DNA from: Squalus acanthias | Taxonomy: Eukaryota | DNA: 64,000 nt | Assembly (NCBI GenBank): GCA_030390025.1 | Contig: CM059432.1 | Coordinates: 3,968,001 to 4,032,000 of the forward strand | Reading direction: 5' to 3' | Part shown: positions 6,061-11,283 of the stretch, in pieces | Layout of the letters: every line of letters starts with the position of its first letter | Position numbering within the stretch: position 1 is the stretch's first letter | Program-made: the position numbers and the translations under genes | The notes under the pieces: model-generated | What the model was told of the DNA's origin: nothing | The model's input: the letters and a program-made list of their open reading frames with translations, nothing else | The model's database searches: none

Positions 6061-6197
6061 GCGTTCTTATGAAAAGTCCCCATGCAAAGCACTAATGCCG
6101 TTTCTCTTCATAGAGTCATAGAGTCATAGAGTTATACAGCACGGATAGAGGCCCTTCGGCCCATCGTGTCCGCGCCGGCCATCAAGCCCTGTCTAAT

Positions 6198-9117
6198 CTA
6201 ATCCCATATTCCAGCATTTGGTCCGTAGCCTTGTATGCTATGGCATTTCAAGTGCTCATCCAAATGCTTCTTGAATGTTGTGAGGGTTCCTGCCTCCACA
6301 ACCCATTCAGGCAGTGAGTTCCAGACTCCAACCACCCTCTGGGTGAAAAAGTTCTTTCTCAAATCCCTTCTAAACCTCCCGCCCTTTACCTTGAATCTAT
6401 GCCCCCTTGTTATAGACCCCTCTGCTAAGGGAAAAAGCTCCTTAGTATCCTTCCTATCTATGCCCCTCATAATTTTGTGCACCTCAATCATGTCCCCCCT
6501 CAGCCTCCTCTGCTCCAAGGAAAACAAACCCAATCTGCCCAGTCTCGCTTCATAGCTGAAGCACTCCAGCCCGGGTAACATTCTGGTGAATCTCCTCTGC
6601 ACCCTCTCCAAAGCGATCACATCCTTCCTGTAGTGTGGCGACCAGAACTGCACACAGTATTCCAGATGTGGCCTAACCAGTGTTCTATACAGCTCCATCA
6701 TAACCTCCTTGCTCTTATATTCTATGCCTCGGCTAATGAATGCAAGTATCCCATATGCCTTTTTTACCACCTTATCCACCTGTTCCGCCGCCTTCAGGGA
6801 TCTGTGTACTTGCACACCAAGATCCCTCTGACCCTCCGTCTTGCCTAGGGTCTTACCATTCATTGTGTATTCCCTTGCCTTGTTAGTCCCTCCAAAGTGC
6901 ATCACCTCGCACTTTTCCGGATTAAATTCCATTTGCCACTGTTCCGCCCATCTGACCAACCCATCTATATCGTCCTGCAGACTGAGGCTACCCTCCTCGC
7001 TATTTACCACCCTACCAATTTTTGTATCATCCGCGAACTTACTGATCATACCTTTTACATTCATATCCAAGTCGTTAATGTAGACCACAAACAGCAAGGG
7101 ACCCAGCACCGATCCCTGTGGTACCCCACTGGCCACAGGCTTCCAGTCACAAAAACAACCTTCGACCATCACCCTCTGCCTTCTGCCACTGAGCCAGTTT
7201 TGTATCCAATGTGCCAAGGCACCCTGGATTCCATGGGCTCTTACCTCCTTGACCAGTCTCCTGTGCGGGACTTTATCGAAGGCCTTACTGAAATCCATGT
7301 ATACCACATCCACTGTGTTACCCTCATCCACACACCTAGTCACTCCCTCAAAAAATTCAATCAAATTAGTCAGACATGATCTTCCCTTGACAAAGCCATG
7401 TTGGCTAACCCTGATTAATCATTGCCTCTCCAAGTGGAGACTGATTTTGTCCCTCAGAATTTTTTCCAATAATTTTCCTACCACTGATGTTAGGCTCACT
7501 GGCCTGTAGTTCCCCGGTTTTTCCTACTCCCTTTCTTGAATAATGGTACTACATTAGCGGTTCTCCAGTCCTCTGGCGCATCCACTGTGGCCAGAGAGGT
7601 TCTGAATATATGTGTTAGAGCCCCCGCAATCTCCTCCTTTGCCTCACACAGCAGCCTGGGATACATTTCGTCCGGACCTGGGGATTTATCCATTTTTAGA
7701 CCTGCTAAAACCGCCAATACCTCCTCCCTCTCGATGTTAAAATGTTCGAGTATATCACAGTCCCCCTGCCCTAATTTTATGTCTGCATCGTCCTTCTCCA
7801 TAGTGAAAACAGATGCAAAAAATTCATTTAGAACCCCACCTACATCTTCCGGCTCCACACACAGATTGCCACTTTTGTCCCTAATGGGCCCTACTTTTCC
7901 CTAGTTATCCTCTTACCCTTAATATACTTATAAAACATCTTAGGATTTACCTTTATTTTGCTCGCCAGTGTTATTTCATGGCCCCTCCTTGATCTCCTAA
8001 TTTCTTTTTTAAGTATCCCCCTGCACTTTTTGTACTCCTCTAGGGCTTCCTCCGTCTTTAGCATTTTGTATCTGCCAAAATCCCTCCTTTTTTTCCTGAT
8101 CCATTCTCGTATATCCCCTGACATCCAAGGTTCCCTGGGGTTTTTGGAACCACCCTTGACCTTTACGGGAACATGCTGCCATTGTATGATCTCAATCTCC
8201 CTTCTGAAAGAATCCCATTGCTCCAATGCGGATTTTCCTACAAGCAGCTGATCCCAGTCAATTTTGGCCAGATCCTGCCTTATTCTATTAAAATCGGCCT
8301 TCCCCCAATTTAGAACCTTTATTTCCGGCCCATCCCTGTCCTTTTCCATGACCACTTTAAATCTCACCGTATTATGGTAACTGTCACCAAAGTGCTCACC
8401 TACTAGCACTTCTTCCACTTGGCCGGCCACATTCCCTAGAATTAGGTCCAGTACCGCCCCCTCTCTTGTAGGACTTTCTACATGCTGGCTCAAAAAGCTC
8501 TCCTGGATGCACTTTAAGAATTTTGAACCCTCTAAGCCTTTCACACTCTGACTATCCCAGTTAATATTGGGGAAGTTGAAGTCCCCCATTATTATTACCC
8601 TATTATTTGCACATTTCTCTGAGATTTGCCTACATATCTGTTCCTCTATCTCCCCCTGACTATTTGGGGGCCTATAGTACGCTCCCAGCAAAGTGCTTGC
8701 CCCCTTTTTGTTTTTAAGCTCCACCCATATAGCCTCATTGGAGGAACCTGCTAATATATCATCCCTCCTTATGGCAGTAATTGATTCCTTAATTAATATT
8801 GCGACACCCCCTCCTCTTATACCTCCCCCTCTGTCTCGCCTGAAGATTCTGTACCCCGGAATATTGAGCTGCCAGTCTTGCCCCTCCCTCAACCATGTCT
8901 CCGTGATAGCAACAATATCATACTCCCATGTGTTTATCAACACCTTCAGTTCATCCACCTTATTCGCTAGACTCCTTGCATTAAAATAGATGCCTTCCAG
9001 CCTTGCTCTTACATGTTTGCCCTGTCTTCCAAGCTGACTTGTTTTTTTCTCTATATTTGACTGTACATCACCCCCTATTGTACCTCCACTCTGTATCCCA
9101 TCCCCCTGCCAAGTTAG
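6198..9117 (-). pseudogene. CR1 ORF2: APE endonuclease plus reverse transcriptase, two frameshifts
   Basis: [35 protein letters not shown]; frameshifts near 7895 and 7520. Confidence 0.92.
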
Positions 9118-10064
9118 TTTAAACCTCCCCCAACAGCGCTAGCAAACCTCCCCGCAAGGATATTTGTCCCGCTCTGGTTCAGGTGCAAACCGTCCGACTT
9201 GTACAAGTCCCACCTTCCCCAGAAGCAGGCCCAGTGATCCAGGAAACTAAAACCCTCCCTCCTGCACCAACTCTTTAGCCACGCATTCATCTGTTCTATC
9301 CTCCTATTCCTATACTCACTAGCACGTGGCACTGGGAGTAATCCAGAGATTACAACCTTTGAGGTCCTGCTCTTTAATCTGCTGCCTAGCTCCCTAAATT
9401 CTTGATGCAGGACCTCATCCTCCTTCCTACCTATGTCGTTGGTCCCAATGTGAACCACGACCTCTGCCTGCTCCCCCTCCCCCTTAAGAATGCCCTGTAG
9501 CCGCTCAGTGACATCCATGACCCTGGTCCCAGGGAGGCAACAAACCATCCTGGAGTCACGTTTACGGCCACAGAAACGCCTATCTGTTCCCCTTACGATA
9601 GAATCCCCTACCACTATTGCTCTCCCACTCTTTTTCCTCCCTTTCTGAGCAGCAGAAGCAACCCTGGTGCCAGGAAGTTGGCTGCTGCTGCACTCCCCTG
9701 GTGAGTCATCCCCCTCAACAGTATCCAAATCGGTATACCTGTTTGAAAGGGGGATAACCGCAGGGGTCCCCTGTACTTCCTTCCTGCCTCTAAAGCTCCG
9801 CCTGATGGTCACCCATTTCCCTTCTGCCTGTGCAGCCCTACCCTGCGGCATGACCAACTCGCTAAACGTGTTATCCACGACCCTCTCAGCATCGCGTATG
9901 CTCCAAAACTCATCCACCCGCAGCTCGAGCGCCGCAATGCGGTCTACAAGTAGCTGCAGCTGGATGCATTTCTCGCACACATGGTCCCCAGGGACACTGG
10001 CAGCGTCCCTAAATTCCCACATGGAGCAAGAGGAGCATAACACGGGGCTGATCTCACCTGCCAT
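9114..10064 (-). CDS. CR1 ORF1: zinc finger/leucine zipper plus SGNH/GDSL esterase-like domain
   Basis: 316 aa open; CxxC...CxxC, LQLLVDRIAALELRV, GDSIVRG, HIGTND, DGLH. Confidence 0.9.
   Translation of the reverse strand: MAGEISPVLCSSCSMWEFRDAASVPGDHVCEKCIQLQLLVDRIAALELRVDEFWSIRDAERVVDNTFSELVMPQGRAAQAEGKWVTIRRSFRGRKEVQGTPAVIPLSNRYTDLDTVEGDDSPGECSSSQLPGTRVASAAQKGRKKSGRAIVVGDSIVRGTDRRFCGRKRDSRMVCCLPGTRVMDVTERLQGILKGEGEQAEVVVHIGTNDIGRKEDEVLHQEFRELGSRLKSRTSKVVISGLLPVPRASEYRNRRIEQMNAWLKSWCRREGFSFLDHWACFWGRWDLYKSDGLHLNQSGTNILAGRFASAVGGGLN
9117..9123 (-). promoter_or_regulatory. Candidate -1 ribosomal frameshift slippery heptamer U_UUA_AAC
   Basis: GGT TTA AAC TAA at the ORF1 end; the -1 frame (CTA ACT TGG...) is open and in frame with ORF2, with no AUG before the EN domain. 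Confidence 0.65.
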
Positions 10065-10288: not shown

Positions 10289-10560
10289 GCCTTACCTGGT
10301 CTCTGGAGCCTTTTATAGGCCCACTGCCACCGCTGAAACTCCCGCCGACGCTCTGAGGCCTCACCTGGTCTCTGGAGCCTTTTATAGGCCCACTGCCGCC
10401 GCTGAAACTCCCGCCGACGCGTTGAGGCCTTACCTGGTCTCTGGAGCCTTTTATAGGCCCACTGCCGCCGCTGAAACTCTCGCCGATGCTCTGAGGCCTT
10501 ACCTGGTCTCTGGAGCCTTTTATAGGCCCACTGCCGCCGCTGAAACTCCCGCCGACGCTC
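10289..10560 (-). repeat. 69-bp tandem repeat x4 forming the CR1 5' end
   Basis: Units start at 10289, 10358, 10427 and 10496 on plus; each carries TATAAAAG and CAG|GT(A/G)AG on the minus strand. Confidence 0.95.
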
Positions 10561-11216: not shown

Positions 11217-11283
11217 CAGCCCAGACTCCAGACAGCCCAGACTCCAGACAGCCCAGACTCCAGACAGCCCAGACTCCAGACAG
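11217..11283. repeat. 16-bp tandem repeat x4 (cagcccagactccaga)
   Basis: Direct reading; the motif recurs at ~14801-14819. Confidence 0.9.

Follow-up and report, generated by a model that had tools for sequence, protein, structure and literature searches.

A conserved slippery heptamer at the ORF1 stop of a dogfish CR1 retrotransposon and a proposed -1 frameshift into ORF2

The element and its ORF1-ORF2 junction

The window, by which we mean the whole stretch of 64,000 nucleotides of Squalus acanthias DNA analysed here (contig CM059432.1, positions 3,968,001 to 4,032,000), carries on its minus strand, from about 10560 to 6108, a near full-length long interspersed nuclear element (LINE) whose two open reading frames (ORF1 and ORF2) meet at a potential slip site. 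The domain layout, together with a by-eye resemblance to published CR1 consensuses, points to a CR1 LINE of the esterase type: the start of ORF1 resembles the consensus SquAca_CR1-11, and the junction resembles ScyCan_CR1-1a and PriPec_CR1-7. Elements of the CR1 group predominate among the retrotransposons of most vertebrate species (PMC13343379; this and the other papers are cited from excerpts), and the translation of ORF2 in two-ORF LINEs has been described as unclear (PMC3708506). The features that define the junction are the following.

9114..10064, minus strand: ORF1, 316 amino acids, ATG at 10064, with a Cys-rich N-terminus, a long helix, a disordered linker and an SGNH/GDSL esterase
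9117..9123, minus strand: slippery heptamer U_UUA_AAC, in the ORF1 phase, encoding the final Leu-Asn
9114..9116, minus strand: ORF1 stop codon, immediately 3' of the heptamer
7891..9138, minus strand: ORF2 frame, first open stretch, with an apurinic-type endonuclease and a 25-nucleotide overlap with the end of ORF1
8989..9116, minus strand: AUG-free linker in the -1 frame, about 42 codons, from the slip site to the first endonuclease motif
8587..8589, minus strand: first in-frame AUG of ORF2, codon 184, within IIMGDFN and 133 codons into the endonuclease

On the minus strand ORF1 ends GGT TTA AAC TAA, and the ORF2 frame, which opens at 9138 and is the -1 frame, crosses the heptamer as F-K-L-T-W-Q-G-D-G into the endonuclease. 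The initial annotation had claimed an in-phase heptamer at 9123-9117 directly before the stop and an open -1 frame with its first AUG deep in the endonuclease, and both are present as described. Eight AUGs occur within 260 nucleotides from the heptamer onward, all of them out of frame, and neither in the window nor in a second CR1 locus, L001, does an AUG in the ORF2 frame overlap or adjoin the ORF1 stop. Since the Pfam endonuclease match begins at residue 52, a start at the codon-184 AUG would remove about 130 residues of the domain. In-phase heptamers of the X_XXY_YYZ type occupy 2 of the 317 codon positions of this ORF1, or about 0.6% per position; a second shift-prone one, G_GGU_UUU, lies inside the esterase (9255-9249, minus strand), and its -1 frame stops at once. 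The junction is not a private indel of the window copy, as contigs of read runs X1 and X7 cross it gap-free and no indel at 9010-9260 is found in four read runs, among the 12 of 14 indel rows listed.

The esterase domain of ORF1 matches Pfam PF13472 (E 1e-15), its long helix is probably a coiled coil, and the predicted structure (predicted local distance difference test, pLDDT, 77) has as its best Foldseek match the ORF1 esterase of ZfL2-1 (4C1B, E 4.6e-10); the nearest named homologues come from sharks and rays. The endonuclease of ORF2 matches PF03372 (E 1.7e-14, residues 52-255), and comparison of ORF2 with solved structures gave only weak matches, to ExoIII (E 0.05) and TRAS1 (E 0.33).

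Conservation of the heptamer, the stop and the phase

The comparison at the DNA level covered the first 400 bases of each of about 1,000 published CR1-group consensuses (supplement of PMC13343379). The heptamer with a stop was found at the ORF1 end, as judged by eye, in 18 consensuses from 12 species among the 22 matches listed of 23, the other four of the 22 lying away from an ORF1 end. The species are halosaur (labelled Crack), alligator, bowfin, bullfrog, elephant shark, crocodile, stingray, coelacanth, bearded dragon, sawfish, catshark and dogfish, and in all 18 consensuses the stop, be it UAA, UAG or UGA, follows the heptamer directly. Thirty alternative strings, a subset of the possible spellings in which the Leu or Asn codon, the base before Leu or the heptamer itself was changed, gave no occurrence at ORF1 ends; six strings holding the heptamer without a stop added one more junction, in a gapped consensus. 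From the codon usage of the element, the U_UUA_AAC spelling would be predicted in about 1% of Leu-Asn ends.

The same end is seen in the proteins. Among 82 near homologues of ORF1 (sharks, rays, frog and turtles; 37-70% identity), the C-terminal region is aligned in 57, of which 51 have exactly Leu-Asn as their end, the remaining six ending in IN, LNY, SL, RQ and, twice, WL, one WL end being that of a read-through model; L313 and N314 are invariant in the ORF1 alignment A1. A profile search provided a distant set of 150 representatives of 50%-identity clusters, of which 109 have the His motif and a full tail, and the ends of these tails include 48 LN, 9 GN, 3 EN, 2 KN, 2 SN and 1 FN, the background of Asn in the residues preceding the end being 4.6%. 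Lizard, snapping turtle and swallow are among the LN-ending members that could be named (10 proteins looked up). The LN is located 22, 23, 24, 29 or 36 residues past the catalytic His, and residues 312-314 of the ORF1 model lie past the last helix with pLDDT below 50; this variable distance and the low-confidence tail imply that the LN motif tracks the stop codon and not the fold.

A further test is offered by the residue before Leu, because U_UUA_AAC needs a codon ending in U at that place, which excludes Met, Trp, Gln, Lys and Glu. Of the LN proteins, 51 near and 54 distant, a single one in each set has one of these five residues before Leu, and it is P0006 both times; in de-duplicated tails the count is 0 of 33, versus 44 of 231 (19%) at seven upstream positions (binomial p 0.0009, a value that overstates independence, the families being related). 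All nine members of the GN group (six after de-duplication) have Gln before Gly-Asn; they are probably one clade and hence represent one predicted heptamer swap and not nine. The Gln-Gly-Asn end fits CAG GGA AAC, that is, a putative G_GGA_AAC heptamer, and U_UUA_AAC, G_GGA_AAC and A_AAA_AAC are among the most shift-prone sites (PMC5009743). By both the spelling searches and the preceding-residue test, the heptamer is conserved beyond the need of the protein. As a separate observation, the distant ORF1s P0223, P0206, P0153 and P0179 end in Gln-Glu-Asn, Leu-Glu-Asn, Ser-Lys-Asn and Phe-Phe-Asn, ends that would be compatible with G_GAA_AAC, A_AAA_AAC and U_UUU_AAC.

It could be argued that Leu-Asn is a C-terminal signal of the ORF1 protein itself, used in binding or degradation, of which the heptamer is a by-product, ORF2 being made in some other way. 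The invariance of L313 and N314 would agree with such a signal, and a free C-terminal motif can function while disordered. A signal in the protein leaves unexplained, however, (i) the single spelling, at about 1% by codon usage, (ii) the limit on the preceding residue, and (iii) the Gln-coupled swap from Leu to Gly, and it leaves ORF2 without a start; we consider it highly improbable.

The -1 phase can be read in other loci. L001, obtained from a metagenome scan and with an ORF1 37% identical to that of the window, reads CAT TTA AAC TAG, has a -1 frame open into the endonuclease, and has its first Met in the ORF2 frame 10 codons past the first endonuclease motif. Two stingray (Hypanus) gene models, P0036 and P0229, run from ORF1 through F-K-L into the endonuclease, and these three sequences confirm the -1 phase. 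A sister protein of P0229, P0026, ends G-G-G-G-L-N, so that the fusion in P0229 fits a one-base change in the upstream G-run. The initial annotation had proposed a comparison of heptamer, stop and -1 phase with those of sibling CR1 elements, and that comparison finds them kept across jawed vertebrates; judged by these alignments and string searches, the heptamer-stop site is deeply conserved, from sharks to birds.

The fused, in-frame sequences of P0036 and P0229, as well as the frequent splice-donor-like motifs in the 5' region of the element, would also suit a joining of the two frames at the RNA level, either by transcriptional slippage that adds a base in the U/A run or by a splice from the 5' untranslated region (UTR) or ORF1 into ORF2. 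We regard this as very unlikely on several grounds: (i) the site has runs of only three U and three A, which are short for polymerase slippage; (ii) there is no pyrimidine tract upstream of ORF2; (iii) base-inserted RNA would yield new fused elements, yet separate LN-ending ORF1s dominate; and (iv) two runs guessed to be RNA (X7 and X17) contain no joints and no listed insertion, a weak point, since contigs drop rare variants.

Wider searches located few related sequences. The metagenome scan gave 13 loci, with a CR1 junction in L001 only; prokaryote genomes gave five loci, none with a CR1 junction; viral contigs had no match for ORF1, ORF2 or the GN group, and a motif scan returned two loci, both unrelated to CR1; plasmids had no match, and phages only an esterase at 30% identity. 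A search for homologues of the ORF2 N-terminus gave six matches, none of which crosses the heptamer. At about 1290-1700 of one locus, L006, a lone in-frame UGA separates a distant esterase ORF from an open frame that has an endonuclease-like start motif, and this may be a stop-readthrough version of the CR1 junction. Among the ORF1 homologues, pieces annotated inside ray host genes (ribosomal protein S24, TMEM204, ABHD14A-like and hydroxyacid oxidase 2; P0025, P0076, P0081, P0229 and P0230) are probably annotation artefacts or exonisation, and P0011, filed under Pseudomonas aeruginosa, is probably contamination.

Routes to ORF2 and the region downstream of the heptamer

The geometry of the junction, its phase, the absence of a usable AUG in the window copy and the conservation of the heptamer at the nucleotide level are observed, and they lead us to consider it likely that CR1 elements of the esterase type make an ORF1-ORF2 fusion by programmed -1 frameshifting, as the initial annotation had proposed; the slipping of ribosomes, its rate and the fusion as the working form are what we infer from them. 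Most ribosomes would read ORF1 and terminate at the codon after U_UUA_AAC, giving the 316-amino-acid ORF1 protein, and a minority would slip back by one base (UUA AAC to UUU AAA), bypass the stop and read a linker of 30-105 residues into ORF2. The product would be a fusion of about 1,290 amino acids with the junction ...G-L-N-L-T-W-Q-G..., resembling Gag-Pol.

Several points weigh against the frameshift, in addition to the kinship of the families and of the GN group given above: (i) the share of LN ends drops with distance (25 of 30, then 13 of 40, then 10 of 39 in successive rank bands), and past rank 50 of the distant set many ORF1s have other ends; (ii) the published consensuses are gapped, so that the frame phase is unreadable from them; (iii) the region downstream of the heptamer folds no better than its shuffles in four windows (z +0.82, -0.12, -0.08 and -0.20, from a program that does not model pseudoknots and for a region rich in purines and poor in C), it is outdone in folding by 93% of element windows, and the corresponding region of L001 is nearly structureless (-2.5 kcal/mol); (iv) in 3 of the 18 consensuses the stop is part of UAAUG, in which an AUG in the ORF2 frame overlaps it; and (v) the linkers of P0036 and P0229 contain a Met, at 16 and 41 residues past F-K-L, which means that in these families ORF2 could start without a slip. 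The description of ORF2 as AUG-less in the initial annotation holds for the window copy and L001 and not for every family.

The last two points bear on termination and reinitiation, in which the ribosome would finish ORF1 and begin again in the -1 frame, either at an AUG that overlaps the stop or at a codon other than AUG, and make ORF2 as a free protein; the U/A-rich heptamer would aid the post-termination ribosome in stepping back. Human L1 uses AUG-independent reinitiation. In the CR1 group, UAAUG occurs in catshark CR1-1a and in dogfish CR1-17a and -6c, a GUG stands at the equivalent place in elephant shark CR1-1b, and the stop always adjoins the heptamer; UAAUG is also what the LINE SART1 uses (PMC3708506). 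Against this, the codon that would serve as start varies freely among the 18 consensuses, the window (where it is ACU) and L001 (GAA), and the heptamer is invariant, the linker Met is found at unrelated places or is absent, and reinitiation predicts neither the U-ending codon before Leu nor the Gln-Gly-Asn alternative. UAAUG and linker starts are sporadic, the heptamer constant; reinitiation may operate in some CR1 families, and as the explanation of the junction it is in our view unlikely.

The initial annotation had described the signal as coronavirus-type, with G-tracts and a gtaca/tgtac stem downstream. The two features are present as it described them.

9097..9110, minus strand: G-rich motif, its five-G run starting 11 nucleotides past the heptamer, with a 7-nucleotide spacer past the stop; candidate stimulator
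9063..9083, minus strand: gtaca/tgtac hairpin, weak, beginning 34 nucleotides past the heptamer

The coronavirus-type 3' structure finds no support, in view of the folding results in the window and L001 and of the lack of an Rfam match for the downstream region. The usual spacing of a stimulator is 5-8 nucleotides (PMC3919603), and because no stable hairpin or pseudoknot is found at that distance we do not class the junction as coronavirus-type. The gtaca/tgtac stem was rejected as a stimulator, being weak and too distant; in all four runs its first G gives way to another base at 96-100% of the depth (the comparison covered 40 of 257 substitution rows, and a compensating change could be in the other 217), and the stem is probably private to the window copy or its subfamily. 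Long-range pairing of the G-rich motif was likewise rejected, its best energy of -19.0 kcal/mol being matched or beaten by 13 of 30 shuffles.

The G-rich motif itself has a G4Hunter score of 1.52, in the top 0.7% of element windows. A run of at least four G starting no more than 14 nucleotides from the heptamer occurs in 14 of the 18 consensuses (by eye), in the window and in L001, against a background of 9.6%, the commonest offset being 10-11 nucleotides. A folded stimulator that acts on the heptamer would be expected closer than this, yet the offset amounts to a spacer of 7 nucleotides if the stop sits in the A site. For the window the prediction is a quadruplex of two tiers; L001, without four G-tracts, can form none. 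Of the candidates for a stimulator, the best would be the stop codon next to the heptamer and the G-run some 10 nucleotides downstream, with the pause supplied by the stop or by a protein that binds the G-run; frameshifting stimulated by protein is known from nsp1beta with PCBP (PMC5009743). We suggest, tentatively and as a possibility we hold to be doubtful in its full extent, that CR1 and its relatives with G_GGA_AAC make their reverse transcriptase (RT) as a fusion of esterase, coiled coil and RT through a frameshift that needs no folded RNA stimulator, the pause coming from the adjacent stop plus the G-run, seven bases past it, bound by a trans-acting protein of the host or by the ORF1 protein.

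The window copy, related systems and consequences

The other parts of the element are as follows.

10289..10560, minus strand: 5' region, a 69-bp unit in 3.9 tandem copies, each unit with a TATA-like box and a splice-donor-like motif
7419..7903, minus strand: damaged middle of ORF2, in which the frame changes near 7900 and again near 7500 and a stop falls at 7421, from the stop map
6198..7418, minus strand: RT part of ORF2, up to the stop (Pfam PF00078, E 1.3e-26)
6108..6136, minus strand: 3' terminal 8-bp tandem repeat, 3.6 copies

Given the frame changes and the internal stop in ORF2, the window copy is not intact; it is a broken copy with no special function. The 69-bp array is probably an internal promoter. 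In the region 10560-10058 (minus strand), which includes the array, further splice-donor-like motifs lie at about 10230 and 10215, and after them an AT-rich stretch stands right before the ORF1 ATG. This 5' block is also present in the shark consensuses SquAca_CR1-3 and -18 and may represent an intron of the 5' UTR or a promoter module. The 3' end consists of short tandem repeats and not of poly(A); CR1 elements end in 8-bp repeats. For the target-site duplication there are only 6-bp candidates. More than 12 further 5'-truncated CR1-like fragments, 64-86% identical to the element, lie at 12500-60000 of the window, and no other CR1 copy within these 64 kb extends to the junction. Upstream of the element, at 11217-11283, a 16-bp tandem repeat is present in 4.2 identical copies.

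The proposed frameshift has both likenesses to and differences from systems already described. Coronavirus ORF1a/1b (U_UUA_AAC in infectious bronchitis virus; PMC5009743) has the identical in-phase heptamer and a downstream replicase ORF in the -1 frame, but there a pseudoknot lies a few bases downstream, whereas CR1 has an adjacent stop, no fold above shuffles and only the shared G-run. Among elements without long terminal repeats (non-LTR elements), TRE5-A and TRE3-A of Dictyostelium, with an apurinic/apyrimidinic-type endonuclease, are stated to require a -1 frameshift for ORF2 (PMC5911963); they belong to another clade and have another ORF1, and CR1 adds to them a single heptamer kept across jawed vertebrates. 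Some Penelope-like elements, which also lack LTRs, join ORF1 to the RT by frameshifting, as we propose for CR1, but differ from CR1 in the class of RT and in the endonuclease, and a pseudoknot is reported for them (PMC8557442); esterases occur in Penelope-like elements too (PMC3905857). In view of these two cases, a frameshift is nothing new in kind for non-LTR elements.

SART1 (PMC3708506) is likewise a two-ORF LINE with a -1-frame ORF2 next to the ORF1 stop, and its UAAUG is that of 3 of the 18 CR1-group consensuses; it depends on that AUG together with an RNA structure downstream, and its products are separate proteins, whereas the window copy of CR1 has neither AUG nor structure. The ORF1 protein of ZfL2-1, an SGNH esterase (PDB 4C1B; PMC3905857), has the same architecture as ORF1 of CR1. 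In G-quadruplex-stimulated -1 frameshifting (PMC3919603), G-tracts 6-8 nucleotides past the slip site give up to about 7% frameshifting, but that system is engineered with three tiers, and fewer tiers give less, whereas at most two tiers are predicted in the window and none in L001. No report of a CR1 frameshift was found in the excerpts of the literature searched, whose coverage excludes Haas 1997 and 2001, Kajikawa 1997, Kapitonov and Jurka 2003 and the Repbase notes, which may mention the overlap.

To conclude, a heptamer kept from sharks to birds offers a single small site that can be tested. If the frameshift is real, the actual ORF2 protein of CR1 would carry ORF1 at its N-terminus, and ORF2 annotated from the first AUG would be wrong; the ratio of ORF1 to ORF2 would be fixed in the retroviral manner, and the RT would enter the particle in cis, brought there by the esterase and coiled coil. 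The site would be a natural -1 frameshift site present at very high copy in vertebrate genomes, and the missing RNA structure would point to an unusual stimulator; if the ORF1 protein binds the G-run, feedback would be possible. Should the more tentative proposal of a stop and a protein-bound G-run also be true, CR1 would hold an ancient, structure-free and stop-coupled -1 frameshift, and its particle would be Gag/Gag-Pol-like in stoichiometry.

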